From an uncultured Gammaproteobacteria bacterium (GTDB lineage: Bacteria; Patescibacteriota; Patescibacteriia; UBA11705; JABHMO01): a stretch of 55,037 nucleotides of DNA. The notes below the pieces were generated by a model that was given only the letters and a program-made list of their open reading frames with translations, was not told where the DNA came from and ran no database searches. Where the stretch lies: positions 1 through 55,037 of the forward strand of contig CAZPBK010000006.1 in NCBI GenBank assembly GCA_964584985.1, in the 5' to 3' direction. The number at the start of each line of letters is the position of its first letter. Position 1 is the first letter of the stretch. This document shows, one piece after another, positions 2,931 to 40,200 of the stretch. A program made the translations under genes and the position numbers.

Positions 2931-5021
2931 ATGAGAAAAGCAATTGTCTTTTGTTTGGTGGTTTTGTTTTCCGGGTCGGCCTTGGGCTTTACCCTGGATG
3001 GAGTACCTTTCAAGTCTCAATCGCCTCCGGGCGATTGGAACCAAAACATGAATTGCGGTCCGGCCTCTGTTTTGATGGTCGGTGCTTATTACCAACACTT
3101 TCAACCCGGATCCGAGGATCTGGAAGCGGTTTTGGACTGGCTTTACGAGGCCGGTTATATTAGCCCGCAACCCGGAGCCGAATATTATGACGGCAACCTG
3201 ACCAACGCCAATATCTTGGAAAATCTTTTAACCGGGTTTTTTAACTTGGATCCGGTGATCAAGAAAAATTCCAATGATTGGAATTATTTGGGAGAAAAAT
3301 TGCAACAGGGCAATCCCATCATCGTTGGTGTGAATGTGGACTTGAATCCGCAAAAAATGGGTCATTTTATGGTGGTGGTCGGACAAAATCTTGATCAGAT
3401 CATTGTTCATGATCCCGGTCGCACTCAAGGCGAATATCGAGCTTATCCACGAGATCAGTTTGAAGCTTCTTGGGCCACTTCCGGTTATGTCAGCTTGGTG
3501 GTGGATATTTCGCCTGTCACTTGGCATCCGGACGGCAGTTTGGTTCAAGTGGCCGGAGAAAACCAAGTTTATTTGCTGGATCAAGGACGCCGGCATTGGA
3601 TTTTTGACGAACAAGTTTTCAATGCGTTGCACTATGACTGGCAAAAGATTATCAGTATTTCTCAAGCTGAGCTGGATTGTTATGATGACGGCGGTCAGAT
3701 TGATTGGCAACCTTATCATGAACTTTTCCGAGTGGGCGAGACTTATTATCTTTTGGAAAAATCATCTGTTGATTCGGTTAACGGGGCGATTTATGAATTT
3801 GCTTCAACCGCCGCTTTTAACAGTTGGAATATTCCGGGATATATTCAGGATTTGGCGTCAGACCAAGCCGAAACACAGTATTTCAGTCATTTTGATTATG
3901 GCGGATTACTTTATTTACGCCATGGTACTTTGGTTAAACCCGGATTTGATTTGCCCGGTTATGGTCCAGGAGTGGTTTTTGTTTGCGATGCGGACGGTTA
4001 TTTGCTGTCTTTTGAAAGCTGGGACTTGTTTACTCAAATGGGCTATGATCAATTGCCGATTATTTTGCTGGGAGAGCAAGAGTTTTACGCCAGTTATTTG
4101 GGTATTTCCGAGATGATTGACCAAACCAAGGCTTCCCAGTGCTTGAACGGCAGTTTTTCCGCTCAAGGCGGCAGTCAAGAAATTATTTTGGCTGATAATG
4201 ACGATGATGGTTATGATTATCAAGAGGATTGCAATGACAATAATCCGCAGATCAATCCCGGCCAAAGCGAGATTTGCGATGGCCTGGATAATAACTGCAA
4301 TGATTTGATTGACGAGGGATTGCTCAATGCTTGCGGTGATTGCGGTCCCGAGCCTGAAGAAGTTTGCGATGGCTTGGACAATGATTGCGATGGCTTGATT
4401 GACGAGGGATTGCTCAATGCTTGCGGTGATTGCGGTCCCGAACCTGAAGAAGTTTGTGATGGTTTGGACAATGATTGCGATGGCTTGATTGACGAGGGAG
4501 ATCTTTGTCTTGGTGATCAAATCTGTTTGAACGGTTATTGCCAGAATCAAACCCAAGAGCCGGAACCGGATGATCCGCCGGAAGATCCTCCTGAGGAAGA
4601 GCCAGAGCCTATTCAAGACGATCCTCCACCGGAAGATCCTCCTGAAGAAAACCAAGATCCCGGTCAAGACGACCCTCCGCCGGAAGAGCAAACCATTGAT
4701 CCACCTGAGGAAGAGCCTGAAATTATAGAGTGTACGGTCACTTGCCCGGGTGATATGCAGGCTTTTATTTGGTACGCCAGTTTTGGCGAAGAGACCGGGG
4801 CTTCAACAGTTACTATGTCGGCCACCAAACAAGAAATTTGTTTGCGAGGTCAGCCGTGGATTGATTTTAATTGCGCTGGTCAAAATCCCTTGTGGTCATA
4901 TTATGATCCCGGTCTGGCTCAGATTGACTGCAATGTTGATTATGAGCTGAAGATTCCGGGCATTATTGACAGCGGGGGAGAGGGAGAAGTGTGGTTTACC
5001 TCCATATCCTGCTGGCAGTAG
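2931..5021 (+). CDS. secreted papain-like (peptidase C39-like) domain protein fused to Cys-rich CDGLDNDCDGLIDEG repeats, a Pro/Glu linker and a Cys-rich C-terminal domain
   Basis: 696-aa ORF with a signal peptide. Candidate catalytic residues: NMNCGPASVLMVGAYY (Cys), GHFMVVVG (His), VHDPG. Four CxGxDNxCxxxIDEG metal-binding-type motifs, a PEDPPEE linker, and an AAAGGAG SD. Confidence 0.75.
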   Translation: MRKAIVFCLVVLFSGSALGFTLDGVPFKSQSPPGDWNQNMNCGPASVLMVGAYYQHFQPGSEDLEAVLDWLYEAGYISPQPGAEYYDGNLTNANILENLLTGFFNLDPVIKKNSNDWNYLGEKLQQGNPIIVGVNVDLNPQKMGHFMVVVGQNLDQIIVHDPGRTQGEYRAYPRDQFEASWATSGYVSLVVDISPVTWHPDGSLVQVAGENQVYLLDQGRRHWIFDEQVFNALHYDWQKIISISQAELDCYDDGGQIDWQPYHELFRVGETYYLLEKSSVDSVNGAIYEFASTAAFNSWNIPGYIQDLASDQAETQYFSHFDYGGLLYLRHGTLVKPGFDLPGYGPGVVFVCDADGYLLSFESWDLFTQMGYDQLPIILLGEQEFYASYLGISEMIDQTKASQCLNGSFSAQGGSQEIILADNDDDGYDYQEDCNDNNPQINPGQSEICDGLDNNCNDLIDEGLLNACGDCGPEPEEVCDGLDNDCDGLIDEGLLNACGDCGPEPEEVCDGLDNDCDGLIDEGDLCLGDQICLNGYCQNQTQEPEPDDPPEDPPEEEPEPIQDDPPPEDPPEENQDPGQDDPPPEEQTIDPPEEEPEIIECTVTCPGDMQAFIWYASFGEETGASTVTMSATKQEICLRGQPWIDFNCAGQNPLWSYYDPGLAQIDCNVDYELKIPGIIDSGGEGEVWFTSISCWQ
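4311..4490 (+). repeat. near-identical 2 x 90-bp tandem duplication inside the CDS
   Basis: 4311-4400 versus 4401-4490 differ at only 3 positions. Both encode DEGLLNACGDCGPEPEEVCDGLDNDCDGLI. Confidence 0.9.
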
Positions 5022-5560: not shown

Positions 5561-6361
5561 ATGCAAAATTTACTGGTTATAATTATTTTAACTTTGGTTT
5601 TTCAGGGTCTGAGCTGGAATCAGGCTTTTGATTTACTGGAAGATCAATTGGCACAAATCAATAATCAACCGGAGCGATTAAAACAATTGACTGAAAATAA
5701 ACTGGTGCAAGAGAATATAATAAAAAAAATTCCGGCTGAGCTTGATTTGAAGGTGCCTTTTGTTCCTCAGGCGCCTTTGGCTGATTGGTCCATGCCGTAT
5801 CAAGAAGCTTGTGAAGAAGCGGCTTTGATCCAAACCAAATATTATTTTTCCGATCAAAAATTAACCGCGGAAAAAATGGTTCAGGAAATTTCACAAATCG
5901 TTGACTGGGAAAAGCAAAAATTCGGCTTGTACACGGATACCGCTTTGTCTGAAGTAAAGGTTATGGCTGAGGAGTATTTTAATTTGGCAACGGAAATTAT
6001 GGAAAATCCGAGCGTGGAAAATGTTAAAGCAAATCTTAACCAAGGAAATCTGATTTTGGTTCCAACCGCCGGCCAAGCTCTGGGCAATCCTTATTTTTCC
6101 GGAGCCGGACCACTGTATCATTTTGTGGTTATTCGCGGTTATACCGGGAATCAATTTATTGTTAATGATGTGGGTACCAAAAGGGGAGAAGCTTATAGAT
6201 ATGATTATGACCTTTTGCTTAGAGCCAATCATGATTTAAGTAAAAATCCGGACGGCTCCTGGTTTCGGCCGTATGATTCTCAAACCGACGATCAAACAAA
6301 ACATAAAAAAATGCTCCAAGGGGTTGCTCGCATGTTGGTGGTCAAAGGGCTTAAAAAGTAG
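5561..6361 (+). CDS. secreted peptidase C39-like (papain-fold) family protein
   Basis: 266-aa ORF with a signal peptide. VPFVPQAPLADWSMPYQEACEEAA (Cys), LYHFVVIRGY (His), IVNDVG. Confidence 0.5.
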   Translation: MQNLLVIIILTLVFQGLSWNQAFDLLEDQLAQINNQPERLKQLTENKLVQENIIKKIPAELDLKVPFVPQAPLADWSMPYQEACEEAALIQTKYYFSDQKLTAEKMVQEISQIVDWEKQKFGLYTDTALSEVKVMAEEYFNLATEIMENPSVENVKANLNQGNLILVPTAGQALGNPYFSGAGPLYHFVVIRGYTGNQFIVNDVGTKRGEAYRYDYDLLLRANHDLSKNPDGSWFRPYDSQTDDQTKHKKMLQGVARMLVVKGLKK

Positions 6362-8686: not shown

Positions 8687-8715
8687 ATCTTTGTCTAAAA
8701 AGCAAAGATTTTTTT
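8687..8715. terminator. bidirectional AT-rich terminator between iscS and ftsW
   Basis: ATCTTTG / CAAAGAT stem flanked by an A-run and a T-run. Confidence 0.5.
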
Positions 8716-9835
8716 ATTGGGTTTTAGTTTGACTGGAAATATTGATTAATATACCCATAGCGGCCAAGGCGATAACCATGGCGCTGCCTCCGTAGCTTAC
8801 CAAGGGGAGAGGAATTCCGGTCATGGGCAAAAGCCCGATCATGGAAGCGATATTAAAAAAAGCTTGAAAAATTATCCAAGAAATTATGCCGATGGCGGTC
8901 AATCTGCCAAATTGATCAGGTGCGTTTTTGGCGATTTTAAATCCCCGTTGCATGATTAAAACAAATAAGCCGACCAGAATCACACTCATTAAAAAACCCA
9001 ATTCTTCAGCATAGATGGCAAATATGGAATCTCCGGTTGCTTCGGGTAAATACTGAAATTTTTGTCTGGAGTGACCAAAGCCTCTGCCCCAAAAACCGCC
9101 TGAACCTATAGCCAGAAACGCTTGGTTTATGTGATAGCCAATACCCTGAGGATCCAATTCGGGATGAAGAAAAGTGGTTAATCGTGCCGCTCTGTAAGAT
9201 GATTTGGCTATAAGCAGATAAATGGAAGCCATTCCGGCACCCAGCATACCCAGTACATGTTTCATTTTTGCTCCGGAAGCGAAAAAGACCACAATGGACA
9301 TAAAAATTATAATAGACAAAGAGCCCATGTCCGGTTGAAGGAGCATTAATATGGAAATTACCGCAATCAAAAAGAAAAAAGGTAAGAATCCCGTGTAAAA
9401 ATCCTTGACTCCGGTTCGACCTCTTTTTTCCAGCCAGGTGGCCAGATATAAAAGAAAAGTTAATTTTACCAACTCTGAAGGTTGGAAAGAAAAATCTCCA
9501 ATATTTATCCAACTTTTGGCTGTGCCGTACTCTGCGCCTACACCGGGGATAAAAACAATAATCAAAAGTAAAATGGAGGCTATGAGTAGAGGAGCGATAA
9601 ACTTTTTCCAAATTTTATAATTTATATTGGCCAAAATAAAAAAAAGAAAAATTCCCGGTAAAAGACCGTAAAGCAATTGATGTTTTATAAAATAATAACT
9701 ATCGTCAAAATTTTCAAAACCCACGGCCGTGCCGGCGGAAGAAAGAACCAATAAGCCTAAAACAATCAAGATTCCGAGAGCTATCAACAGGATCATATCC
9801 GGTTTGTGGTATTTTTCGGAAAATAGTTTAAGCAT
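8714..9835 (-). CDS. ftsW: SEDS-family peptidoglycan glycosyltransferase FtsW
   Basis: FtsW/RodA/SpoVE family (multi-TM, GSGGFWGRGFGHS, PEATGDSIFA, PLPLVSYGGS). Lies directly downstream of murD. Start MLKLFSEKY at 9835 avoids overlap with murD. Confidence 0.88.
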   Translation of the reverse strand: MLKLFSEKYHKPDMILLIALGILIVLGLLVLSSAGTAVGFENFDDSYYFIKHQLLYGLLPGIFLFFILANINYKIWKKFIAPLLIASILLLIIVFIPGVGAEYGTAKSWINIGDFSFQPSELVKLTFLLYLATWLEKRGRTGVKDFYTGFLPFFFLIAVISILMLLQPDMGSLSIIIFMSIVVFFASGAKMKHVLGMLGAGMASIYLLIAKSSYRAARLTTFLHPELDPQGIGYHINQAFLAIGSGGFWGRGFGHSRQKFQYLPEATGDSIFAIYAEELGFLMSVILVGLFVLIMQRGFKIAKNAPDQFGRLTAIGIISWIIFQAFFNIASMIGLLPMTGIPLPLVSYGGSAMVIALAAMGILINISSQTKTQ

Positions 9836-9845
9836 AATTTTTTCT

Positions 9846-11186
9846 TTATTCCAATTGGTTAACCGTTTTTCTAAATTGTTCACCTCGATCAAATTCATTA
9901 ATAAACATGCCAAAACTGGCGCATCCGGGAGAAAGCAATATGGTATCTCCGGGCAAAGCCAATCCATAGGCGTGTTTTATGGCTTGTTCAAAGTTATCAA
10001 AACGACCGGCGATTAAATTTTCGCCTTTGTTTTTTATGATTTTTTTCTCCAGTTCGTCAGTGGCTGAGCCTTCCAAAAGAATTACTGATTTAACATTTTT
10101 AACAATGGCTTTGGCCAAGGGGCTGAGATTGAGGTCTTTACTGGCACCTCCGGCCAATAAAATGGTTGGTCTTTTTATGGATTGCAAGGCAACCTTGGCC
10201 GAGGTCGGGGTGGTGCTGGTGGTGTCGTTTATAAATTCAATATCATTTATGTTTTTTACAAACTCAAGACGATGTTCCACTCCGGTAAAATTTTCCACAG
10301 CGGTTTTCATTTTTCCTTTTTTAATACCCAATATTTGTCCGACAGTAATGGCGGCGGCGATATTTTCCAGATTATGTTTACCTGGGATCTTTATATCCCA
10401 TTTTGAAGGTACTTGTCCTCGGAAAAAGGGGACAACCTGCGAGTTTATTTCCAGTTTTATTTTTTTTGTATAATTATTTTGATTATTGATTATGCAATAG
10501 TCTTTCTTTTTTTGAAATTTAAAAATATTTTTTTTGTCATTTATATATTCCCTCATGCCGGCGTAGCGATTCAAGTGATCCGGATAAATATTAGTAAAAA
10601 CAGCAATATGCGGGCTGATTTTTTCCCAAGCAAATCCTTGCAATTGCCAACTGGAAAGCTCTAAAACCACCAGATCTTGTTTATTCACTTTGTCAATTAG
10701 AGGAAGAGCGGCTTCTCCTTGTATGTTGCCTGATAAATAAACCTTTTTTTCCTCATTTTCCCAGTTTTCTTTCAATATTTGATAGATTAAACTGGAGGTT
10801 GTGGTTTTACCTCTGGTTCCGGTAATGCCGATGATTGGGCAAGGACAGTGTTTGGCAAAAAGTGCTTCGTCCATTTTTATATTTTTTTTATGTTTTTCGG
10901 CCAGTTGCAGGTATTTGGATTTCAAGGAAACGGCGGCGTTGCGTATTATTAAATCAGCTTCCAAAATATCCTGTTTTTTATGTTCGCCCAAAGTATACTC
11001 AATTTCATAATCTTCTAGTTTTTCCAAAGAAGATTTTAGTTCCTCGGCTTTTTTTAAATCAGTAACTTTTACTTTGGCTCCTTTTTTTGCAAAAAACAGA
11101 GCATCTTTAACACCTCGGCCGAGTAAACCTAAACCAAGAATCAGAACTTTCTTGTTTTTAAAATTTGGAAATTTTTTTTCAGACAT
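9846..11186 (-). CDS. murD: UDP-N-acetylmuramoylalanine--D-glutamate ligase
   Basis: Mur ligase motifs ITGTRGKTTTS, NIYPDHLNRY and GVEHRLE. Lies in the mraY-murD-ftsW order. Start set at 11186 (MSEKKF). Confidence 0.92.
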   Translation of the reverse strand: MSEKKFPNFKNKKVLILGLGLLGRGVKDALFFAKKGAKVKVTDLKKAEELKSSLEKLEDYEIEYTLGEHKKQDILEADLIIRNAAVSLKSKYLQLAEKHKKNIKMDEALFAKHCPCPIIGITGTRGKTTTSSLIYQILKENWENEEKKVYLSGNIQGEAALPLIDKVNKQDLVVLELSSWQLQGFAWEKISPHIAVFTNIYPDHLNRYAGMREYINDKKNIFKFQKKKDYCIINNQNNYTKKIKLEINSQVVPFFRGQVPSKWDIKIPGKHNLENIAAAITVGQILGIKKGKMKTAVENFTGVEHRLEFVKNINDIEFINDTTSTTPTSAKVALQSIKRPTILLAGGASKDLNLSPLAKAIVKNVKSVILLEGSATDELEKKIIKNKGENLIAGRFDNFEQAIKHAYGLALPGDTILLSPGCASFGMFINEFDRGEQFRKTVNQLE

Positions 11187-17083: not shown

Positions 17084-17719
17084 TTAAATAAGAGGTTTGA
17101 TTTTTTGCCAAATTTTTTTATTTATATTTTCTATGGTGTCATCAGCCTGAATTATTTGCCAGTTTGGTAAACTTTCAGCCAAATTCAGGAAACCTTGGCG
17201 TACTTTTTGGTGAAACTCGGCTTTTTCACTATCCAAACGATCTTGACTGCGACGAGCATTGATTCGATTTAGGCCTTTTTCAGATTGCATATCAAGTAAA
17301 ATCGTTAAATCAGGTTCAAGCCCGCCGGTGGCCAACGAGTTTATTTTTTTCATTTCCGGCAAGGCAAAAAGACCTCGTCCAAAATGCTGATAAGCCAAAG
17401 TGGATCCGTAAAAACGATCACAAATTACCGCATGATCTTTTTGCAAATGAGGAACAATGGTTTGTTTTACATGCTGGGCTCGCGAAGCCAAAAATAAAAA
17501 AAACTCTGTTTTGGCGCACATGTTTTTATTGGCCGGATCTTTTAGTAAATGGCGGATTTTTTCGGCTATCGGACAGTCGGTACCTCCGGGTTCTCTGGTC
17601 AAAAAAACTTGAATCCCGCATTTTTCCAGGTTTTGCTTTAATAATTTTATTTGCGTGGTTTTTCCACTGCCTTCGCCTCCTTCAAAAACAATAAATTTTC
17701 CTTTAAGTTTTTTTGTCAT
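17084..17719 (-). CDS. tmk: dTMP (thymidylate) kinase
   Basis: FIVFEGGEGSGKTTQ P-loop, REPGGT, and CDRFYGSTLAYQ. Confidence 0.92.
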   Translation of the reverse strand: MTKKLKGKFIVFEGGEGSGKTTQIKLLKQNLEKCGIQVFLTREPGGTDCPIAEKIRHLLKDPANKNMCAKTEFFLFLASRAQHVKQTIVPHLQKDHAVICDRFYGSTLAYQHFGRGLFALPEMKKINSLATGGLEPDLTILLDMQSEKGLNRINARRSQDRLDSEKAEFHQKVRQGFLNLAESLPNWQIIQADDTIENINKKIWQKIKPLI

Positions 17720-17736: not shown

Positions 17737-18324
17737 TTATTGTTGAGGGAATTCTTTTTTTATTATTTTATCCAATTCGTGAAAAAGATCGGTTTTTTTC
17801 TTGGTGTTGACAATAGTGTGATCAGCCATGGCGATCGGTCCGCCTTTTTCTATGTTTTCTATTTCCGCATAATCTCTGGAATGAGCTTGATCATAAGTGG
17901 CCGGTCGGTTTCGGAGGTCTTTATCTTTGTTTTTTATTTTTCTTTGCGCCAATCTTTTATATCTTGTTTCGGGAGGGGCGAATATGGCCACCACTAAAAT
18001 TTTATTCTGGTAGTATTGTTTTAATTTTTTATATTCCGACCAAGAATAAAGACCATCGGCCACTAAGTTTTTTTCTTGGAGAATTTTATCAAATTTGGGG
18101 ATATTTAAAACCGCCATGGCGGCCATTCCGTGATCCTTGCGCATTTGTTCTCTGATCGGTTTTTCGTTTTCTTCTGTTGGTTCCAGGTTTTTTCTTTTTA
18201 GTTCATCCATAACCACCTGTCCAAAACGAACAAAACCAAATCCTTGTTTTTGCAGATAGTCGGCAGCCAGACTTTTTCCGGATCCGGTCATTCCCACTAA
18301 GGTTATTATTTTATTATTTTTCAT
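17737..18324 (-). CDS. P-loop nucleoside/nucleotide kinase (UPF0200 / dephospho-CoA-kinase-like family), substrate unknown
   Basis: ITLVGMTGSGKS Walker A. VADGLYSWSEYKKL and PPETRYKRL match the archaeal-type UPF0200 kinase layout. Start may be 18324 or 18366. Confidence 0.6.
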   Translation of the reverse strand: MKNNKIITLVGMTGSGKSLAADYLQKQGFGFVRFGQVVMDELKRKNLEPTEENEKPIREQMRKDHGMAAMAVLNIPKFDKILQEKNLVADGLYSWSEYKKLKQYYQNKILVVAIFAPPETRYKRLAQRKIKNKDKDLRNRPATYDQAHSRDYAEIENIEKGGPIAMADHTIVNTKKKTDLFHELDKIIKKEFPQQ

Positions 18325-18352
18325 ATTATTTGATAAGAATTTAAGTTTATTT

Positions 18353-18844
18353 TTATTTTCTGGCAAACAGGTTATAGGCGTTTTCCGGATGATAAATGTT
18401 TCGGATTTCCGCCTTGATCATTTTATTCCAACAATCTTGGCAACACCACCAGTGTCCGTACATATAAATATCAGCATCGCGGGTATCAATATTTTGTTTT
18501 CGCGCTTTTTTTATTAGTTGGGCTTCGGCGTGTTGTTCCGGACTGGCACAGCCGGGACAAAGCCAATAAGCTTTTCCGCTGGGTACTTTAAGTAATCGGC
18601 GTAAACAATATTTTTTATGCAATTCCACCATTTTTTGGTTTTTTAGGATTGATTGATTACCGGCCCGTAAAATAACTTTTTCGTTTCTAACCAAAACAAC
18701 GCCAATGGGGTTAAGTTTTTCAGTGGAGTTTTTTTGTTGGGCTTTTCTGGCTTCTTTCATAAAGGGATGATCTTGGGAAATATATTTTATTTGTCTACCT
18801 TCGGGTAAATACGGATATTGTTTCGGTGGTTTATATGAGACCAT
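18353..18844 (-). CDS. deoxycytidylate (dCMP) deaminase / CDA-fold zinc deaminase
   Basis: HAEAQLI zinc/catalytic motif and a C-terminal CCQDC (PCxxC-type) motif. An extra CPGC precedes the HAE. Confidence 0.75.
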   Translation of the reverse strand: MVSYKPPKQYPYLPEGRQIKYISQDHPFMKEARKAQQKNSTEKLNPIGVVLVRNEKVILRAGNQSILKNQKMVELHKKYCLRRLLKVPSGKAYWLCPGCASPEQHAEAQLIKKARKQNIDTRDADIYMYGHWWCCQDCWNKMIKAEIRNIYHPENAYNLFARK

Positions 18845-18848
18845 ATGG

Positions 18849-19517
18849 TTATTGCCGGTTATCTAAGGAGAAATTATTTTTTAATTCATCTAATTTTCCG
18901 GATTTAAGCAAATCCAACTCATCGCCGGAATCGGTTTTAGCCTCTAAACTGTATGGAGTGGAGCCCACATATTTGGCTTCTTGAACTCCATGCATTTTGG
19001 CTTCTTTCTCACTGAGATCATCGGTTAATTCAAAAAACTGAGTTTGACACAAGCGTTCGCCCGGATAGATTTTTATTATATGATGAGAATTGTTAACCAC
19101 AGGAATGGTTAATTGTCCGTTATAACCGCAGTCTATCATGCCGGTTTCAATTTGAATCCCGCGACGTAGAGCTGAACTGCGAGGCAAAAGCAATCCGGAT
19201 AAATTACCGGAGTTTAAAATGATTTTCTCCAATGTGGAGATTAAAATAAATTCTTGCGGCAATATTTCAAAATACTGTCCGGGTTTTAGTTTTATCAGTT
19301 TAAAATATTCTTCAAAATTTTGGTAATCGGTGTAATCAGCGGTTACGGCCACTCGTCCTTTGGCCGTGTATTTCCAAGTGTGCGGAATGTAAAAATTCCA
19401 TCCGGCTCGGAGGTCAATGGAGTTGGGTGAAATTTGGTGTTTGTCCAAAGCCGGCTCAAAGTTTATTTGTTTTTGTTTAATCTTTTCCAAGATTTTCTTT
19501 TTGGTTAAAATGGCCAT
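18849..19517 (-). CDS. dCTP deaminase/dUTPase-superfamily protein, probably a Dcd-like dUTPase because the deaminase Glu is absent
   Basis: SIDLRAG, LPRSSALRRG, GMIDCGYNGQLTIPVVNN and PGERLCQ. The motif-3 region resembles dUTPase GLIDSDYQGQLMISVWN. The position of the Dcd catalytic Glu is occupied by Pro. Confidence 0.65.
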   Translation of the reverse strand: MAILTKKKILEKIKQKQINFEPALDKHQISPNSIDLRAGWNFYIPHTWKYTAKGRVAVTADYTDYQNFEEYFKLIKLKPGQYFEILPQEFILISTLEKIILNSGNLSGLLLPRSSALRRGIQIETGMIDCGYNGQLTIPVVNNSHHIIKIYPGERLCQTQFFELTDDLSEKEAKMHGVQEAKYVGSTPYSLEAKTDSGDELDLLKSGKLDELKNNFSLDNRQ

Positions 19518-19527
19518 ATTAATAAGA

Positions 19528-20040
19528 TTATTTTATTACTTTATATCTCAGATTAATAACATTTTTATCCAGTTTGTTTATTTCCAATAATTCCAGTTTT
19601 TTATTTAAATCCAAATTCTTAAACAAGGTTAAGCCCCCGCCAAATATAAGCGGTTCAACGGTTAACCGGATTTCATCTATTAAATTTTCTTGTAAAAACA
19701 GAGAATTTATTGAGGTGCCACCACCTAAAATCACTTGGTCAAAGCCTTGTTTTCTTAAATATTTTAAAATTTCAGTTGGTTGGAGTTTGGTATATTCCAA
19801 TTGTCCGGGAATGGTTTTTTCTTTTTTCGGATGATGAGTCATTATTAAGTTTAGTCGTCCGGGCAGGGGACGACCAATGGTTTTATAAGTGGACAGTCCC
19901 ATGATTATAGCGCCGGCTTTTTTGGTTTGTTCAATAAAAATTTTTTTGTCAGCCTCAGAGCTCCAGTCGGTTGAATTTTGTTTACTGGATTTGGCTATAA
20001 AACCATCGGCGGTCATGACCATCATTAGGATAACTTTCAT
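19528..20040 (-). CDS. RibD C-terminal domain / dihydrofolate-reductase-family protein
   Basis: MKVILMMVMTADGFIA...WSS..D, IIMGLSTYKTIGRPLPGR and VILGGGTSIN are typical of the PF01872-type reductase fold. Confidence 0.75.
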   Translation of the reverse strand: MKVILMMVMTADGFIAKSSKQNSTDWSSEADKKIFIEQTKKAGAIIMGLSTYKTIGRPLPGRLNLIMTHHPKKEKTIPGQLEYTKLQPTEILKYLRKQGFDQVILGGGTSINSLFLQENLIDEIRLTVEPLIFGGGLTLFKNLDLNKKLELLEINKLDKNVINLRYKVIK

Positions 20041-20296: not shown

Positions 20297-21163
20297 CTAT
20301 AAAACGATCTTCATCCCTTTGATCGGACCCAGTGGTTTATATTGCTTTTGTAGTTTATCGGTAATTTCCTTGGCCAGTTCAATATCTCCGGTTTCTGCTC
20401 GATCAAAATAATCAGGTTGAGCGTGAAAATTGATCGGCGGATGATCATTGGCTCGTTCGGTTAATTCCCAGGCTTGTTTAAAATGAATATCATAAATATG
20501 AGCATTGGAAATGCTATGAGTCAATTTTCCGGGTTGAACACCCAATTTAGCCGCTAAAATACAAAGCAAAAGATAAAATCCGGCCACATCATGCGGACAA
20601 CCGAGCATCATATCATTGGATCTGACTATTGAGTGAATATGAAGTTTGTTGCCAATAATATTGGCGGTCCAAGTATAAGGGCAAGGGATATTTTTCTTTG
20701 TTTGCGGATTGCCCAATCCGTCTTCTCGTGGATCCCAAGTAATAACCACGCCATGGCGGGAACCCGGTTTTTCAGTTAAATGTTCGACCAAAAGGCCGAG
20801 CTGGTCTCGGCCAAAGGCTTGGCGCCATCTATGTCCGTAAGCGGCCGGAATGGTGCCGTCTTGTTCAGTAAAATCCTGCCATATTTTAGTAAATTTGTTT
20901 ACATAATCATCCGGATGTTTGCTACCCATAATAAACCAAATTTGTTCGGCCACAAATATTTTGATGGGAATTTTTCTTAAAGTTAAAAGCGGAAATCCCT
21001 CATCCAATTCAAAGGTTAAACCGGGAATGACTTTACAAACATGACCGGTGCGTTCATTAAGCTCATCATAGCCTTTATTCATTATTTTCATTATTCCAGC
21101 TTTGTATTGTCGGTCAAACTGAGTCATTTTATATGGATTAGGGGTAGTTAAGCTTATAATCAT
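20297..21163 (-). CDS. thyA: thymidylate synthase (ThyA) family enzyme, divergent, with Asp at the Asn177-equivalent position
   Basis: NERTG, FPLLTLRK, AEQIWF, AAYGHRWR, catalytic Cys in NIPCPY, VRSNDMMLGCPHDVAGFY and NAHIYD. The start may instead be MTQFDRQY at 21127. Confidence 0.8.
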   Translation of the reverse strand: MIISLTTPNPYKMTQFDRQYKAGIMKIMNKGYDELNERTGHVCKVIPGLTFELDEGFPLLTLRKIPIKIFVAEQIWFIMGSKHPDDYVNKFTKIWQDFTEQDGTIPAAYGHRWRQAFGRDQLGLLVEHLTEKPGSRHGVVITWDPREDGLGNPQTKKNIPCPYTWTANIIGNKLHIHSIVRSNDMMLGCPHDVAGFYLLLCILAAKLGVQPGKLTHSISNAHIYDIHFKQAWELTERANDHPPINFHAQPDYFDRAETGDIELAKEITDKLQKQYKPLGPIKGMKIVL

Positions 21164-21200
21164 TTTATCAAAACAAGGGCAAAAAGAAAAGTTGATAAGC

Positions 21201-21229
21201 TTGACAGGCCATTCCTGCCGTGATAAAAC
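21201..21229 (+). promoter_or_regulatory. sigma70-like promoter of the 21277 orphan gene
   Basis: TTGACA (21201-21206), 17 nt spacer, TAAAAC. Confidence 0.45.
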
Positions 21230-21276
21230 AGAAAGTGTTGAATAAGGTGTTTTTTAACCGAACAAAGGAGGATTTT

Positions 21277-21501
21277 ATGAGAGACAAGGAAAAACAAAAT
21301 CATTCCTATTTAACGATCCATTTGGAGCAAGCTACTGAGATAGAGATAAAAAAAGCGATTAAGTCGGCTTTTCATATGAAAGAATATGAAGCGGCCAAGG
21401 TTTTATGCTCTTATCTGCAGATAAAGCAACAAGAACGGTGTCTGACTTACTTGAAAAAGGCTGTTGATGAGTTGGTTATAGCGATGAGTTGGCAAAACTA
21501 A
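21277..21501 (+). CDS. small hypothetical protein (74 aa)
   Basis: AAAGGAGG lies 6 nt upstream of the ATG at 21277, which is preferred over the track start at 21220. The gene has its own promoter and terminator. Confidence 0.5.
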   Translation: MRDKEKQNHSYLTIHLEQATEIEIKKAIKSAFHMKEYEAAKVLCSYLQIKQQERCLTYLKKAVDELVIAMSWQN

Positions 21502-21535
21502 ACTAAACTAATCTAATCTAATCGGTCAACAAAAA

Positions 21536-21562
21536 GGCCACCTTGCATTAAGGTGGTCTTTT
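21536..21562. terminator. bidirectional terminator between the 21277 gene and rplA
   Basis: GGCCACCTT-GCATT-AAGGTGGTC stem followed by TTTTG, with an A-run upstream. Confidence 0.7.
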
Positions 21563-21591
21563 GCTTTGAATAGAGGTTAATTCATACTGAT

Positions 21592-27081: not shown

Positions 27082-28176
27082 ATGTTGAAAAGGATTTTGG
27101 AAAATTTGGCCAAGATGGATTGGATCCTTTTAACGGCTGTTTTCATGCTGTTTTTTTTGGGATTGGCCGCCATATACAGTGTTAATCTAAGCCAGGCGGA
27201 TGAGGGTTATGACAATTTTAAAAAGCAGATTTTGTTTGCCGTGATAGGGCTGGTATTTATGCTTATTTTGGGGTTAAGTAATTATGCCGGACTCAGGGTT
27301 TACAGTAGGCTCCTTTGGTTGGTTTGTTTTGTGTTGTTAATCTTGGTTTTATTTGTGGGCAGCGTAGTTCACGGGACTCAAGGCTGGCTGTCTTTAGGGA
27401 GTTTTAATATTCAGCCCGTGGAATTGGCCAAAGTGGTTTTAATAATCGTTTTAGCCAAATTTTTCAGCAATCGTTTACAAAACTTTACTGAGACCAAACA
27501 TATTATAGTAAGTTTGATTCTTTGTCTGTCTTTGGCTGTCCCGGTTTTGCTACAACCAGATTTGGGATCGGCGGCTGTTCTTTTGGGTATTTGGTTTATA
27601 ATGCTTTTGCTTACCGGGATAAGAAAAAGAACTGTTTTACTTTTGTTTTTGCTTTTGGCCGTGGTGGCGGTAATGGGCTGGACTGTATTTTTAAAGGATT
27701 ATCAAAAAGAAAGAATAATGGTTTTTTTGGATCCGCAATCTGATCCTTTGGGAAGCGGATATAATGTGACACAATCGGTGATAGCTATAGGTTCCGGTAA
27801 AATTTGGGGAAGGGGACTGGGCTTTGGGTCACAAAGCCAGCTGAAATTTATTCCGGAGGCGCAAACTGATTTTATTTTTGCCGTGATCGCCGAAGAACTC
27901 GGTCTTTTTGGAGTTTTTTTAGTAGTTTTTCTTTGGGCTTTGATTTTTTATCGTTTACTTTTGATCGCCAAGGGAGCCAGGGATGATTTTGGGATGTTTT
28001 TGGTTCTCGGAGTTATGAGTATTTTCTTTTGGCATTTAATGATAAATATGGGCATGAACATGGGGATTATGCCGGTAATGGGAATTTCTTTGCCTTTTTT
28101 AAGTTATGGGGGTAGCTTTTTGATTGTTGCCATGCTTTTGGTAGGTATGGCTCAAAGCGTAAAAATTAAAAGTTGA
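27082..28176 (+). CDS. rodA: SEDS-family protein RodA (second FtsW/RodA paralog in the window)
   Basis: Polytopic protein with GSGKIWGRGLGFGSQ, PEAQTDFIFAV and SLPFLSYGGS. Lies outside the dcw block. Confidence 0.85.
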   Translation: MLKRILENLAKMDWILLTAVFMLFFLGLAAIYSVNLSQADEGYDNFKKQILFAVIGLVFMLILGLSNYAGLRVYSRLLWLVCFVLLILVLFVGSVVHGTQGWLSLGSFNIQPVELAKVVLIIVLAKFFSNRLQNFTETKHIIVSLILCLSLAVPVLLQPDLGSAAVLLGIWFIMLLLTGIRKRTVLLLFLLLAVVAVMGWTVFLKDYQKERIMVFLDPQSDPLGSGYNVTQSVIAIGSGKIWGRGLGFGSQSQLKFIPEAQTDFIFAVIAEELGLFGVFLVVFLWALIFYRLLLIAKGARDDFGMFLVLGVMSIFFWHLMINMGMNMGIMPVMGISLPFLSYGGSFLIVAMLLVGMAQSVKIKS

Positions 28177-35324: not shown

Positions 35325-37190
35325 ATGGATAGTTTTTTTGTTTTATTGAAGGATAAGAGCAGTATTAAGAGAAAGGGCGGTTTTTTTTCACTGGCTTTTG
35401 TTTTTGTGGTTGTTTTTTTCTTTTTTGGCGGACAGGTTTTAGCGTCGGATTCCGAAGTTTTTTCCGGATTTTTATCTCCGGAAATGAGAACTCCTGAAGT
35501 TTTGTCAAAAAATCAAATAAAATGGCCTTTCTATGACCGATCCTTTGGTGAAAAATGGTTTGAGCTTCGGAGTAAGTCCGGAGAGCTTTTAAAAAAAGTG
35601 GAGGATTTGGATTTGACTTATATTATTGAAAAAAATTTGCAACCAAATACCGGCTATCAGCGTCGAATACATGCTTGCAAGGAAGATACTTATGCGGCTT
35701 CAGCTTTGTCCGAAAAGGTTTTCACTTTGGCCGCCAGACCGCAAATCAAGGCAGTCTATGTTCAGCCAAATGGAAATATCGGTTTGGAGGTTGATCATCA
35801 GGGAAATCCAAAATATACAAAGTATGCCATTTATGAAAAGGAAAGAGATTTGTGGTTGCAACCTAATTATACATTGGGTAAAAGAAGAGTTTTTCAGCCT
35901 TATTCAGATTGGATTGCTGATACCAGAGCGGTGCAAATAAAACAAACCGAGCCTGAACAAAAATATGTTTTTGCCGTTCAAGCCAAAAATGAAGAAGGCA
36001 ATAAAACCAATTTGTCTGAATACCGAGAGGTTGTTTCCGCTGATCTGGATAATCCGAATTTGTTGATAAAAAAGAAAGTGGGAGTGGATCTGGAAAAAAA
36101 AATGGCAAGAGGTTTTTATATGGGGGATTTGGTTTTTGCCGGTATAAATTCAGATTGGGCGAAAACCCTTCCGGTTTATTCCGTTTATTTGAATTGGATT
36201 ATTTTTGGCTTTGCGATTTTACTGGTTCTTTTTTTGTCAGGTCTAATTTTAAATTCCAAAAGATCTAAATCAGTAAAATATATCCCCGAGGTTTTGCTTG
36301 ATGATTGGAGGCGACGGGAAGTTGATGCTTATTATCATTTAATGCATGGCCAGGGGAAAAGCGACAATCATCAGCGTTATCATAGACATAAACATTTTTA
36401 TCGCTGGTCGGGTTATTCTTTCTTGGGACTTGTTTTGTCTTTGGCCGTAAAATTGGGAGTGTTTGTTCTGGCTTTTGTTCTTATTTACGGACAGGTTCCC
36501 ATTATGGCTTTTTCCGATCAAAACAAGCACCCCGTTCCCGAAGATGGTGCTTTAATCTACGAAGTCTTGGTTGAAAATACGGGTAGAAAAACCGAAGCAG
36601 GTGTTTTTATAGAGGAAAAAATTCCTCAAAAGGTTTCTTATGTAAATTCCAGTATGACGGTTAACGGTTTGGCGCAAACGGACGATCGGGATGATGATCA
36701 AGCTTTTATTAAAGAAAACTTGATAAAAACCAAAGTGCGGGATCTTGCTCCGGGAGAAAAGGTTGTTCTAAGGTTTAAGGTTTTAATTAAAGGGGAGCCT
36801 GAAGAAGTGATCAGTAATGAAGCTGTAATCAAATATAACCGGGGTGATTTTTTTACCAGAAGCAAAAAAGTAAGCAATAAAATAGTTAAAAAACAAGATT
36901 TTAATTTGGCCAGCTTGCAGGTGCAAAATATCAGTGAAAAAGCAGAGCCCGTATTTTCTTATGATGAAGCTGATTGGTATGTTCAAGTTATAGATCAATA
37001 TATAAATTTTAGCCGAAAATCCAAAAATGATTTTAGAAAATATATAATGTATGATATTGAGCCTTTGGAAAAAAATAGATTGAAGCAGTATAGAGCCGAA
37101 GATGTTTTCAAAATAATTTTTGAGCATTCTCCGGAAAAAGAGGTTGAAAAAGCGGTGGTCAAGGCCGTAGCTTATATTTTAGTGCGTTAA
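35325..37190 (+). CDS. membrane protein: two FN3-like domains, a TM hairpin, and a DUF11-like domain; paralog of an internal module of the downstream giant protein
   Basis: 621 aa. Collinear by-eye similarity to giant-protein residues about 1476-1935 (for example TLAARPQIKAVYV.../TLAAQPQINKVEI..., HKHFYRWSG/HKHFYRLRG, and the DUF11-like segment). Confidence 0.8.
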   Translation: MDSFFVLLKDKSSIKRKGGFFSLAFVFVVVFFFFGGQVLASDSEVFSGFLSPEMRTPEVLSKNQIKWPFYDRSFGEKWFELRSKSGELLKKVEDLDLTYIIEKNLQPNTGYQRRIHACKEDTYAASALSEKVFTLAARPQIKAVYVQPNGNIGLEVDHQGNPKYTKYAIYEKERDLWLQPNYTLGKRRVFQPYSDWIADTRAVQIKQTEPEQKYVFAVQAKNEEGNKTNLSEYREVVSADLDNPNLLIKKKVGVDLEKKMARGFYMGDLVFAGINSDWAKTLPVYSVYLNWIIFGFAILLVLFLSGLILNSKRSKSVKYIPEVLLDDWRRREVDAYYHLMHGQGKSDNHQRYHRHKHFYRWSGYSFLGLVLSLAVKLGVFVLAFVLIYGQVPIMAFSDQNKHPVPEDGALIYEVLVENTGRKTEAGVFIEEKIPQKVSYVNSSMTVNGLAQTDDRDDDQAFIKENLIKTKVRDLAPGEKVVLRFKVLIKGEPEEVISNEAVIKYNRGDFFTRSKKVSNKIVKKQDFNLASLQVQNISEKAEPVFSYDEADWYVQVIDQYINFSRKSKNDFRKYIMYDIEPLEKNRLKQYRAEDVFKIIFEHSPEKEVEKAVVKAVAYILVR

Positions 37191-37275: not shown

Positions 37276-40200
37276 ATGCTAAGGCGGTTGAAGAAAAATT
37301 GGAATAGATTAAAAACCTTGTCTGTTTTTTGGCCGGGTTTGTTTTTGGTTGTGGGTGTGTGTTTGTTGCTTTTTTTTGATGCCAAGGCCTTTACTTGGAC
37401 TACGAATTCAATAAATGATTCTTATTCTGTTGGTTATTCCAATAACCGATCTATTTCCACCTATGTAGTTGACTCTGATCATCAGTATTATGCTTATGTA
37501 AATGGAAGCTGGGATGCTTTGCGTTACGCCTATAACAATAATGGCAGTTGGACTTATGCCAGTGGCGGGGACGGTTTGCTTAGAGGGAGTATGCCGGCCG
37601 GGGATGTCGACGACCGCAACGGAACCGACATAGCCTTGGATGGTTCCACTCCGGTTATTTCTTTTTCCAGTACTACGGACGGAGTTTATGTCGCCAGGCA
37701 AGATACCAACTATAACAGGAGTGCGGATGATTCGGGATGGTCTTTTGAAGAAGTTTATACAGGTGCTCATGTTATAGAGTCCAATCTGGAGATAGATAGT
37801 ATAGGTGTTCCACACTTGGCTTTTTATAATAGCGATGATAGTGAAATTATTTACGCCCATGAAGATGAGGGGATCAATGATCCGGATTGCGGAACTTTGG
37901 GAGATTGGCAGTGTGAGGTGGTGGCCGGTACCGGAATCACGGGGGTTATGCCCAGAATGATTTTGCGCTCTTCTGATGATATGCCCGTGGTTGTTTTTGC
38001 CGATGTAGGCAATAACGAAGTAATCATGGCTGTTCGTAATGGTGGTGGCAGTGGAACTTGTCCGGATAATAATGAGTGGAACTGTTATACGGTGTACGAT
38101 TCGGTTTATACTTCCGAGCGTTATACGAGGATGGGGTTGGCTGAAAATTCCAACGGTCAATTCGGAGTTGTTTTTCCCAGCTCTACAGAGAAGTTGGATT
38201 ATGCCATTCATGATGCCGGAGATTATTCCTCTTGGACGGTTACCAATGTAGAAGACTCCGGAGGCTGGTTTGGTGCGGACCTTACCTACAACGGCACCAC
38301 TCCGATGTTTGCTTCGTATCATGATCATACTTCGTCAACTCCTTATGATTTGGTTTTCTACAGTTACGATGGAGCGACCTGGCAGACTGAGACAATAGAT
38401 GATACTTCAAATAATTGTTTTGATTTTGATTTGGAAAACGATGGTTCTTTTACTTTGGCGGCTTTTGGCCATGACGATGGTAGCTCTGATTTATATCCGT
38501 ATTATTCCACGGCCACGGTTACTTATAATAGTTTACCAACGATTTCCAGTTCAGGATCCCCCGAGCAACACTCAATGGATTTTTTAAGCAGTACACATGT
38601 TTATTATTATTGGACTCCGACCGAAGCTAATATCGGTAAAGTTATCTGGCGTAACTGGGTGGCGGATGGTGATAACGATGGAGTAATGCTTAAATTTGAA
38701 TACTCGGATGATGGGGGTGCCAATTGGTATGATCCATACATTGATTCCATTTTATACACCAATGCGGATCTAGATAACAGTCAAACCTACCAAGTGGGTA
38801 CAAATACCAAGATTGATATTGCCGGTGGCGAGGACAGTGTAATGATTTATTGGGATCCTAAATCAGCCAATAATGAAAAACCGATTGATGATGTGGAAAA
38901 CAGCAATGTTATGCTCAGGGTGACTCCGCACGACGGCACTTCCGCCGGTTCGGCTTCCGCTACCGGAGCTTTTTCCGTGGATACCTTGGACCCTTCCGGG
39001 CTGGGTAGTTTTAGCGCTGATACGGTAAACAGTACCAGCGTGGATTTTAGTTGGGATACGGTGACTGAAAATAATTTCCATAATTATGAGATCTGGGTTG
39101 GTCGTGATCAGACAAATGTGCAAAACAGAACCAATAGTAGCTCTTGGTCTTACAGTCAATTGGGCGTTAGTCATAATGGTGGAACTCATATGGAAGACTT
39201 TGAACATTTGGATTTTGATATGGATGGGGATGAAGATGTAATAGCTTTTAGTGAAGAAATTGGCAGTAGTTATGACTTAAATTGGTATGAAAATGATGGA
39301 ACGGCCTCTTTTTCCCAACATACGATAATAGAGGGAACTACGGAAGATGTTTATAATGATTTGGTTTTTCAAGTGGTGGATTTTGATGGAGATGAAGATT
39401 ATGATCTTTTAACTTATTATACCAAAAATTCAACCGGATACAGTTATTTCTCTTGGTATGAAAATTCTGGAGATAATTTGACCTTTACAGAGAATTTTAT
39501 TCGTGAGGAGATAGTTCCCGCACCGGAGGATATGGTAGCTTATGATTTTAATTCGGACGGCTATTTGGATGTGGTGACCAGTGATGCTTTTGAAATGTCT
39601 CTTTATTTGAATTCCGGAGATAACTCTAGTTTTACCAAAGAAACGGTCATTGAAAACAGTGATCTTATCCTTGATTTAAAGGTGGGGGATGTTGATGGTG
39701 ATTCTGATATAGATGTGGTCGGTGTAACCGGTTCCGGAGATGATAAAATATATCTTTATAAAAATTCCGGAGATAACTCAAGTTTTACTCGTTCGGAAAT
39801 AGGTAGCGGTTATAATAAAGTTGAACTTGAAGATATAGACCAGGATGGTGATTTGGATGTTTTTGGAGGGATTGAAACTAACAGGCTTTGGTTTAATGAC
39901 GGAGGTGGAAATTTTACTGAACTTGACAGCTGGGAAATGTCTTCTCCGTCCTTGGGATATTGTTATGAGTTGGTGGATTTGGATGAGGATGGTGATTTGG
40001 ACATTGTTGGTATATATAATAACAGTGATGTGCAATGGTTTGAAAACAGAGACGGTGATTTTTTCGTGGAGCATGATATAAAAACCGGAGTAGTTGATAA
40101 TATTGAAGGTGTGGTGGTGGCTGATTTTGATATGTTTGGAATGGACGATAAATTGGAAGTTATAAATGTCAACAGAAGTGAAGATAGTCAAGCCTTTTTT

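Follow-up and report, generated by a model that had tools for sequence, protein, structure and literature searches.

A ThyA-family protein with a dCMP methylase-type active site in a conserved nucleotide gene cluster of Patescibacteria, and a predicted route to thymidylate through 5-methyl-dCMP

The window analysed here, a 55,037-nucleotide stretch of contig CAZPBK010000006.1 (assembly GCA_964584985.1), comes from the chromosome of an ultra-small bacterium of the Patescibacteria (Candidate Phyla Radiation, CPR), with a GC content of ~38% and no compositional break. It encodes a homolog of thymidylate synthase (ThyA) that, judged from alignments, profiles and a tree, is a new member of the clade of deoxycytidine monophosphate (dCMP) methylases typified by the enzyme of Xanthomonas phage Xp12, and we consider it likely that the protein is specific for dCMP. 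The gene lies in a cluster of nucleotide-metabolism genes that recurs across Patescibacteria. With somewhat less assurance, we favour the view that the enzymes of this cluster provide a whole route from deoxycytidine triphosphate (dCTP) through dCMP and 5-methyl-dCMP to thymidine monophosphate (dTMP), the substrates being assigned from sequence. The proposal builds on direct observations, namely the residue signature of the ThyA homolog, its clade membership, its synteny with its partners in both directions, the loss of a catalytic Glu from a dCTP deaminase (Dcd)-like partner, and several gene fusions.

Results

An Asp at the base-specificity position

The gene, and the codons that matter most for its assignment, are as follows.

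20297..21127, minus strand: gene for a ThyA-family protein that belongs to the Asp-type (Xp12-like) clade and is predicted to be a dCMP C5-methyltransferase (PF00303, alignments, HMM scores)
20588..20590, minus strand: GAT, encoding Asp180, which aligns with the base-specificity residue Asn177 of E. coli ThyA (HMMER and MAFFT)
20678..20683, minus strand: two codons in the motif NIPCPY, one for the nucleophile Cys149 (C146 in E. coli) and one for Pro150 (His147 in E. coli) (alignment)
20624..20626, minus strand: codon for Val168 (E. coli Gln165), in the motif VRSND (alignment)

The open reading frame (ORF) extends over 20297-21163 on the minus strand and, since nearly all homologs are 276 amino acids long, translation probably starts at Met13 (position 21127) to give a protein of that length. 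The match to PF00303 scores 164 bits against a cutoff of 24.3. The nearest homologs share 66-100% identity with it. All are labelled 'thymidylate synthase' or hypothetical, and every one with an organism name comes from Patescibacteria.

An initial annotation of the gene, made by reading the sequence alone, had proposed that the equivalent of Asn177 is Asp. In HMMER alignments on solved ThyA structures, the query segment mlGCPHDVAGF falls on flGVPFNIASY, and MAFFT gives the identical register against E. coli ThyA, a reference whose numbering was verified at 18 landmark residues. A rigorous alignment could have returned Asn at this base-contact position; both methods returned Asp. The catalytic and phosphate-binding framework is kept, as had also been proposed: R26, E61, Y97, R124 and C149 correspond to E. 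coli R21 (ERTG), E58 (AEQ), Y94 (AYGH), R126 and C146, while R169, S170, D172, H210 and Y212 correspond to R166, S167, D169, H207 and Y209. The W80 of the E. coli enzyme is likewise retained. The replacement of the His of the PCH motif by Pro, and of Gln165 by Val, could both be seen in the MAFFT alignment. Trp83, which the initial annotation had not mentioned, is replaced by Phe86, and the R127 position is occupied by His. In ThyA, Gln165 orients Asn177, and His147, Gln165 and Trp83 are partners in the hydrogen-bond network of the pyrimidine, Asn177 and the C-terminus. The window protein therefore carries Asp in place of the canonical Asn177, and Pro, Val and Phe in place of His147, Gln165 and Trp83.

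Asp at position 177 goes with cytosine substrates and Asn with uracil substrates (PMC8670742; PMC5175136), and a metavirome study found that positions 177 and 147 best separate cytosine-modifying enzymes from ordinary thymidylate synthases (eLife; PMC8670742). Work cited in that article shows that an Asn-to-Asp change at this position turns the E. coli and L. casei enzymes to dCMP. A complex of L. casei N229D with dCMP has been solved (1njc).

The AlphaFold2 model of the ThyA homolog (pLDDT 90.4, pTM 0.91) is uncertain only in a clade-specific insertion. Foldseek matched it to solved thymidylate synthases with an E value of 2e-20 and a TM-score of about 0.8. The matches in the PDB were canonical thymidylate synthases only, with no natural Asp-type methylase among the 50 best listed, so that the fold search cannot discriminate between substrates of the homolog.

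An Asp-type clade shared with phage enzymes

A profile alignment and a phylogeny, which the initial annotation had recommended as checks, group the protein with the Xp12 dCMP methyltransferase and away from both Asn-type ThyA and the T4 dCMP hydroxymethylase gp42. In a neighbour-joining tree (no bootstrap), an Asn-type clade that includes E. coli ThyA is separate from an Asp-type clade made up of the Patescibacteria group and the enzymes of phages Xp12, Mallos, JWX and RDJL, with T4 gp42 as a distant outgroup. The protein scores 261 bits with a profile made solely from the Xp12-like, Asp-type enzymes of phages and 211.5 bits with one of Asn-type ThyA. Its best phage matches, from Achromobacter JWX-like, Roseobacter RDJL and Xanthomonas Mallos phages, are 34-39% identical, the Mallos enzyme being itself 64% identical to the ThyA homolog of Xp12; identity to the phage enzymes compared together with the profiles is 36-39%, against 26% for E. 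coli ThyA and 25% for T4 gp42 (53 bits). Every NCBIfam thymidylate-synthase cutoff is missed, most narrowly that of TIGR03284 (105.2 bits against 108.35), and NF002497 gives 130.9 bits against a cutoff of 327. In PHROGs the window protein, the Xp12 enzyme and T4 gp42 all match phrog_160 ('thymidylate synthase'), a family in which these subfamilies are not separated.

At positions 83/147/165/177 the window protein reads F/P/V/D, the Xp12 enzyme F/P/L/D, and the Mallos and RDJL2 enzymes F/P/I/D; JWX matches this signature too. T4 gp42 reads V/T/M/D at the same positions, and a virome protein annotated 'pyrimidine hmase' reads W/H/Q/D. The combination of Phe83, Pro147, a hydrophobic residue at 165 and Asp177 is that of Xp12 and, taken with a score 50 bits better against the Xp12-like profile and the place of the protein in the Asp-type clade, it supports the earlier proposal of a dCMP-type active site.

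The substitution is not confined to the window. Of the 120 closest homologs, 119 have Asp at position 177. A search of 1.8 billion proteins gave representatives of 50%-identity clusters, and 134 of the best 150 carry Asp; the nearest representatives are all Asp-type, and 18 Asn-type sequences all lie at E values of about 1e-30 or weaker. With few exceptions, Phe83 and a residue other than His at 147 (usually Pro) accompany Asp177, and Trp83 and His147 accompany Asn177; the Asn-type representatives have W83 in 18/18 cases and H147 in 17/18. The nearest inspectable Asp-type representatives from outside Patescibacteria lie on phage contigs, beside genes for a DNA polymerase, SSB, a helicase and a deoxynucleoside monophosphate kinase.

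Two sets of loci were compared, comprising 80 ThyA-centred loci from different GTDB species (species loci) and 80 metagenome loci centred on the partner deaminase described below. The signature PCP / hydrophobic-RSND / G-x-P-x-D was present in 79 of the 80 species loci, the 80th falling outside the regular expression used. On the metagenome contigs, every ThyA gene that adjoins the deaminase and covers the motif has Asp (68/68) and none has Asn. Relatives of the ThyA homolog occur in at least 512 GTDB species of Patescibacteria. Judged from these alignments, the Asp substitution is a clade-wide trait and no one-off mutation.

Evidence for a probable methylase

The initial annotation had allowed for either methylation or hydroxymethylation of dCMP. 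Of these, methylation is supported by the Xp12 signature, the C-terminus and the presence of a dihydrofolate reductase (DHFR), and the same evidence speaks against hydroxymethylation. In the MAFFT alignment the ThyA-type C-terminus is kept (PIKGMKIVL opposite PGIKAPVAI of E. coli), and T4 gp42 is without it. The phage enzyme ends ~27 residues short of the ThyA C-terminus and has no need of DHFR, and hydroxymethylases release tetrahydrofolate (THF) (PMC5175136). In the window the C-terminus is ThyA-like and a DHFR gene is adjacent; the presence of DHFR implies that dihydrofolate is produced, that is, that methylation is reductive (PMC5175136). A second type of hydroxymethylase acts on cytidine monophosphate (CMP): MilA and BcmA carry Lys and Ala in place of the deoxyribose-selecting Arg and Ser (PMC5175136). 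The window protein retains the Arg and Ser, as Arg124 and Ser170 (E. coli R126 and S167), which argues for a deoxyribose substrate. With a ThyA C-terminus, a neighbouring DHFR gene and a signature unlike that of T4 gp42, the protein is unlikely to be a hydroxymethylase, and the sequence points to a methylase.

A conserved cluster with near-obligate partners

Around the ThyA homolog, the order of genes on the minus strand is gatB, tmk, P-loop kinase, deaminase, Dcd-like gene, DHFR and ThyA homolog, with rplA, rplK, nusG, secE and gyrB beyond it. The deaminase, which had been placed three genes away, is indeed the third gene downstream of the ThyA homolog. The partner genes and motifs are the following.

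19528..20040, minus strand: DHFR of RibD_C/DHFR type (Pfam RibD_C 79.9 bits, DHFR_1 49.3 bits)
18849..19517, minus strand: dCTP-deaminase-like protein with a dUTPase fold, without the deaminase catalytic Glu (TIGR02274, structure alignment)
18353..18844, minus strand: divergent zinc deaminase of the dCMP-deaminase (mononucleotide) class (Pfam dCMP_cyt_deam_1, 48 bits)
18524-18532, minus strand: HAE motif of the deaminase, H(A/S)E being conserved across the family
18431-18445, minus strand: CCxxC motif of the deaminase, its CxxC zinc motif being conserved across the family
17737..18366, minus strand: P-loop nucleotide kinase, a variable cluster member (Pfam AAA_18/AAA_17; weak matches to NCBIfam PRK08356 and to archaeal (d)CMP kinase)
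17084..17719, minus strand: dTMP kinase, Tmk (TIGR00041, 185 bits against a cutoff of 83)

The linkage between ThyA and the deaminase is near-obligate in both directions. A deaminase accompanies ThyA in 64/80 species loci, and ThyA accompanies the deaminase in 75/80 deaminase-centred loci, the remaining 5 being on incomplete contigs. The Dcd-like partner was found in 72 of the 80 species loci and 54 of the 80 deaminase-centred loci, DHFR in 59 and 52, and Tmk, in or near the cluster, in 36 and 35, respectively. The P-loop kinase is a partner in 29/80 species loci. Genes outside the module vary between lineages. Neither thyX nor a second thyA was found in the window, the 80 species loci or the 80 metagenome loci (~1.9 Mb of flanks). 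The reference sequences used were E. coli ThyA, Dcd and Dut and T. maritima ThyX, of which ThyA was validated at landmark positions. One CPR study, which takes the ThyA gene for an ordinary thyA, shows that an E. coli folA mutant is complemented by folA genes from CPR (PMC11974145).

Several fusions join these functions. In a Falkowbacteria relative (L004, 14881-16125) Tmk is fused to thymidine kinase in a protein of 414 amino acids, and thymidine salvage is thereby physically tied to the cluster. In P0136 (L173, 8001-9973) a deaminase domain is fused to an Asp-type ThyA, adjoining another Dcd-like gene of the Pro type described below; this contig is probably phage-derived, as it carries an endolysin-type gene and many unannotated ORFs. 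An Asp-type ThyA is fused to a MazG-like/PRA-PH pyrophosphohydrolase in P0176 and to an HNH endonuclease domain in P0158.

A cluster variant that does not look like CPR was seen on JAKAFP010000001.1, a contig labelled Chloroflexi with a GC content of 0.50 (L091, 6448-10690), and L085 and L090 are similar. Its genes encode, in order, an SDR reductase, a first Glu-less Dcd-like protein, a weak nucleoside 2-deoxyribosyltransferase-like protein, an Asp-type ThyA, a ThyA-family paralog of 342 amino acids without the nucleophile Cys ('GIPPYQFFQ') and a second Glu-less Dcd-like protein. No deaminase or DHFR lies within 8 kb of this variant.

A Dcd-like protein without the deaminase Glu

The Dcd-like protein exceeds the TIGR02274 'dCTP deaminase' cutoff (107.8 bits against 92.8). 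Its segment LTIPVVN lies opposite ITLELxN of solved Dcd and Dcd-Dut proteins, which places Pro139 (codon 19101-19103) at the position of E. coli E138. In the 71 parsable homologs from the species loci, the catalytic-Glu position is almost always Pro, is Ser in three and is never Glu; in the metagenome loci it is Pro in 52/54, again with no Glu. Because the catalytic Glu is replaced by Pro or Ser, the protein cannot be a deaminase of known mechanism. It keeps the dUTPase-type Asp129 and Tyr (GxxDxxYxG), and the Asp is present in 69 of the 71 parsable homologs.

Besides the Dcd-like gene, 23/80 species loci hold a canonical Dut no more than a few kb from the cluster (for example L020 11139-11573 and L083 1032-1439), with 30-37% identity to the E. 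coli dUTPase; none was seen in the window. Since canonical Dut is also found near these loci, dCTP is a likelier substrate of the Dcd-like protein than deoxyuridine triphosphate (dUTP). On sequence grounds, the protein is probably a dCTP pyrophosphatase that supplies dCMP and not dUTP, and the 'dCTP deaminase' label is probably a systematic misannotation of a nucleoside triphosphate (NTP) pyrophosphatase family, affecting 72 ThyA-centred and 54 deaminase-centred loci. We also considered whether the Dcd-like protein is the dUTPase of the cell, which the separate canonical Dut in 23/80 loci makes unlikely.

A distinct deaminase subfamily

Alignment of the deaminase family revealed three invariant extra cysteines ('C-x-R ... 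Y-x-x-C-P-G-C') upstream of HAE and an unusual 'GHWWCCxxCW' zinc motif. By analogy with T4 dCMP deaminase, the extra cysteines suggest a second zinc site. Compared with the PDB, the family profile matches the S. mutans dCMP deaminase best. The AlphaFold2 model has a pLDDT of 85.5, and its top Foldseek matches are the dCMP deaminases of T4, S. mutans, PBCV-1 and S-TIM5, at a TM-score of only about 0.5. From these models, the cluster deaminase appears as a mononucleotide enzyme of the deoxycytidylate type that belongs to a distinct subfamily. We predict that it acts on 5-methyl-dC nucleotides, the preference for the 5-methyl group being read solely from gene linkage.

Orthology with the corresponding Xp12-type phage proteins was rejected, as the deaminases share little past the motifs and the DHFRs are just 24-27% identical. 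Because neither the deaminase nor the DHFR is orthologous to its phage counterpart, the module was not simply moved as a block.

Genomic setting

The Xp12-type enzymes are virus-encoded; the window cluster lies between gatB and rplA/rplK/nusG/secE/gyrB in DNA of uniform composition. A prophage or a recent-transfer island was rejected on the grounds of the core chromosomal position, the uniform GC content and the conservation of the cluster across many candidate phyla with different flanks. The remaining ORFs that were scanned in the window are housekeeping genes (FtsW/RodA, MurD, MraY, MiaA, MiaB, RF1, PrmC, IF3 and SmpB).

A gap of 428 bp (21164-21591) separates rplA from the ThyA gene, and a gap of 256 bp separates the ThyA and DHFR genes. 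An ORF of 93 amino acids in the former (21220-21501, plus strand) was rejected as a gene, having no Pfam match and no conservation in related loci, and is probably non-coding. Elsewhere in the window, a giant ORF of 2712 amino acids (37276-45414, plus strand), probably a cell-surface protein, is preceded by a protein of 621 amino acids with DUF11 and fn3 repeats (35325-37190). A weak match (28 bits) to an IS200-like Y1 transposase and two proteins with C39-like peptidase domains, one of which has a MopE-type metal-binding motif, lie close together among the features at 510-1256 (minus strand), 2931-5021 (plus strand) and 5561-6361 (plus strand). Two paralogs of the FtsW/RodA/SpoVE family (8714-9967, minus strand, and 27082-28176, plus strand) occur in this one 55-kb window of a reduced genome.

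Discussion

We propose the following model for thymidylate synthesis by the cluster. First, the Glu-less Dcd/dUTPase-fold protein would cleave dCTP to dCMP and pyrophosphate. The ThyA homolog would then convert dCMP and methylene-THF to 5-methyl-dCMP and dihydrofolate. In this reaction Asp180 would read N3 and N4 of the cytosine and Cys149 would attack C6; methylene-THF would give both the carbon and the hydride, and the dihydrofolate released would be recycled to THF by the adjacent DHFR. Next, the cluster enzyme of the dCMP-deaminase class would turn the 5-methyl-dC nucleotide into the corresponding dT nucleotide, at what we suppose to be the mono- or the triphosphate level. Finally, Tmk would convert dTMP to thymidine diphosphate. 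That methyl-dCMP might be deaminated to dTMP by the nearby deaminase had been raised in the initial annotation, and this idea gains support from the near-obligate linkage, from the parallel with the Xp12-type trio and from the Glu-less Dcd-like partner.

Several points weigh against this model. The characterised phage enzymes of the Asp type are only 35-39% identical to the Patescibacteria protein. A protonated Asp in a more hydrophobic pocket (Pro147, Val165) could in principle form hydrogen bonds with uracil, so that the enzyme may have residual or dual activity on deoxyuridine monophosphate (dUMP). A deaminase, a ThyA, a DHFR and Tmk also make up the gene set of the canonical dUMP route, and canonical Dut, a maker of dUMP, is near the cluster in 23/80 loci. 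The cluster deaminase is no ortholog of the Xp12-type phage deaminases and, because the sole characterised phage deaminase acts on triphosphates, the order of the steps after methylation is uncertain. The check for a second thyA or thyX covered the 55-kb window and ~1.9 Mb of flanks in related loci. Lastly, the dCTP-pyrophosphatase role of the Dcd-like protein is deduced from a missing residue.

These points are taken furthest in the view that the protein is an ordinary dUMP thymidylate synthase, whose Asp is kept protonated in the hydrophobic pocket, and that the cluster is the classical route in which deaminase and/or Dut lead to dUMP. Besides the canonical gene set and the nearby Dut, this view has in its favour that all sources name the protein thymidylate synthase, that outside positions 83, 147, 165 and 177 its catalytic residues are ThyA-like, as are its C-terminus and fold (TM-score about 0.8), and that the Patescibacteria literature includes thyA, as an ordinary thyA, in the minimal capacity for dTMP synthesis (PMC12455944). 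We nevertheless regard it as unlikely. The change from Asn to Asp switches the E. coli and L. casei enzymes to dCMP (cited in PMC8670742); the protein groups within the Asp-type clade, whose members include proven producers of 5-methyldeoxycytidine (5mdC); four active-site positions covary exactly as in Xp12; and the score lies under all NCBIfam thymidylate-synthase cutoffs. Furthermore, in the partner annotated as a dCTP deaminase the residue required for dUTP formation is gone, a loss that sits poorly with a pathway fed by dUMP.

A second alternative accepts that the enzyme is a dCMP methylase and differs in the fate of its product. Here dCTP would be destroyed, 5-methyl-dCMP would be phosphorylated by the P-loop kinase, 5-methyl-dCTP (5mdCTP) would replace dCTP, and a part of it would be deaminated to thymidine triphosphate (dTTP), giving a genome with 5-methylcytosine (5mC) for cytosine. 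The module does parallel that of Xp12-type phages (pyrophosphohydrolase, Asp-type ThyA, deaminase and DHFR), the P-loop kinase is present in the window cluster and in 29/80 loci, and the only characterised partner deaminase uses 5mdCTP and not 5mdCMP (bioRxiv 10.1101/2024.12.05.627091). Against this, the P-loop kinase is missing from most clusters, the linkage to Tmk fits deamination at the monophosphate level, and the cluster deaminase is no ortholog of the phage triphosphate deaminase. We know of no cellular organism with replacement of cytosine at the level of the nucleotide pool. We also found no report of an aberrant cytosine signal in Patescibacteria sequencing, although such data have probably never been inspected for it. 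We therefore hold a 5mC genome to be improbable. The weakest alternative, a dCMP hydroxymethylase with chemistry like that of T4 gp42, whose 5-hydroxymethyl-dCMP would go into modified DNA or some other product, seems to us very improbable: although Asp also stands at the specificity position of T4 gp42, MilA and BcmA (PMC5175136) and many virome Asp-type homologs are predicted hydroxymethylases (bioRxiv 10.1101/2024.12.05.627091), gp42 is just 25% identical (53 bits) and an outgroup in the tree, F/P/V/D is unlike both V/T/M/D of gp42 and W/H/Q/D of the 'pyrimidine hmase', the protein keeps the C-terminal segment with which ThyA covers the folate, most loci have a neighbouring DHFR though hydroxymethylases release THF, and the cluster holds no glycosyl- or other transferase.

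The methylase route that we favour has its closest known counterpart in phages. In Xp12 DNA all cytosine is replaced by 5mC, and the Xp12 enzyme is a known dCMP methyltransferase (PMC5175136). The Xp12 enzyme and 5/7 metagenomic Asp-type homologs gave 5mdC in E. coli, and mSCD-B5, a deaminase encoded in cis, turns 5mdCTP into dTTP and is inactive on monophosphates (bioRxiv 10.1101/2024.12.05.627091). Citing old isotope labelling of Xp12, the same preprint argues that the phages make thymidine nucleotides by deamination of methyl-dC and so bypass dUMP (bioRxiv 10.1101/2024.12.05.627091).

The Patescibacteria protein resembles the Xp12-type enzymes (of Xp12, PaMx74, Mallos, Achromobacter JWX and Roseobacter RDJL Phi1/2) in its ThyA fold and catalytic framework, in Phe83, Pro147, a hydrophobic residue at 165 and Asp177, in an insertion of 5 residues ahead of the PCP motif ('WDPxxDGLGxxxxKN(V/I)PCP') and in the 'AYGxRWRxxFGRDQ' block. 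The partners are also alike. Xp12-type phages carry a pyrophosphohydrolase, the Asp-type ThyA, a gene of the dCMP-deaminase family and a RibD_C-type DHFR in a row, and the Patescibacteria gene is likewise accompanied by a deaminase of this family, a RibD_C-type DHFR and an NTP pyrophosphohydrolase. However, the Patescibacteria gene is chromosomal, stands beside ribosomal-protein genes in a group that spans at least 512 species, and is only 35-39% identical to its phage relatives. Its product has a C-terminus of the canonical ThyA type, whereas that of the phage enzymes is of a phage type. The pyrophosphohydrolase partner has a Dcd/dUTPase fold in Patescibacteria and is MazG or HAD in the phages, the Patescibacteria deaminase comes from a different, Cys-rich subfamily, and Tmk is linked. 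Moreover, 5mC-substituted DNA is known for phage, while the Patescibacteria system is known here from its genes.

Canonical ThyA (EC 2.1.1.45; E. coli, L. casei) shares with the protein the fold, the Cys nucleophile, the phosphate-binding arginines, the residues E58, Y94, D169, H207 and Y209, the C-terminal lid and the coupling to DHFR. It differs in that the Patescibacteria protein has Asn177 changed to Asp, His147 to Pro, Gln165 to Val, Trp83 to Phe and Arg127 to His, has the insertion before the nucleophile, scores under the NCBIfam cutoffs, is 26% identical and belongs to a separate clade. Like T4 gp42, the protein carries the specificity-determining Asp, is predicted to use dCMP and belongs to a nucleotide-pool pathway in which a dCTPase, a deaminase and a kinase also take part; gp42 is set apart by 25% identity, by the lack of the C-terminal ~27 residues and of a need for DHFR, and by other residues at 83, 147 and 165. 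The engineered E. coli N177D and L. casei N229D enzymes are alike in that Asp at the equivalent position makes a dCMP methylase. These mutants are single changes in dUMP enzymes with impaired catalysis, whereas the Patescibacteria Asp is ancestral to a large natural clade and comes with covarying residues at 83, 147 and 165. Finally, the mSCD-B5 pathway likewise combines an Asp-type ThyA with a gene of the dCMP-deaminase family in cis, and a bypass of dUMP has been proposed for it. It is phage-encoded, belongs to 5mC-substituted genomes and operates at the triphosphate level; the Patescibacteria deaminase is of a distinct subfamily that may act at the mono- or the triphosphate level.

The enzyme type and the logic of methylation followed by deamination are thus already known for phages with 5mC genomes. 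What is apparently new, at the level of the system, is a chromosomal and seemingly housekeeping form of this phage nucleotide-pool pathway, in which the deaminase is of a subfamily of its own and the predicted pyrophosphatase has the Dcd fold. In the full-text literature searched, from which subscription journals are mostly absent, no cellular dCMP-methylase route and no report specific to CPR was found.

Cells are generally taken to make all their thymidylate via dUMP, with either ThyA or ThyX. If our model is correct, a large part of the Candidate Phyla Radiation would make thymine by methylation of dCMP and subsequent deamination, dTMP synthesis in these cells would avoid a dUMP intermediate, and a pathway described so far for 5mC phages alone would serve as cellular core metabolism. 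The metabolic reconstructions made for Patescibacteria would have to be revised, thousands of entries in databases would bear a wrong name, be it 'thymidylate synthase' or 'dCTP deaminase', and the cluster would point to an exchange of nucleotide-pool modules between phages and Patescibacteria. In practical terms, methylation sequencing could draw on the cluster for new predicted dCMP methylases, for candidate methyl-C deaminases and for a candidate dCTPase. Were the 5mC-genome alternative true instead, these would be the first cellular organisms with wholesale substitution of a non-canonical base, otherwise seen in phages such as Xp12. Even if the assignment to dCMP proves wrong, a natural Asp-type enzyme that uses dUMP would be informative for the enzymology of thymidylate synthase.

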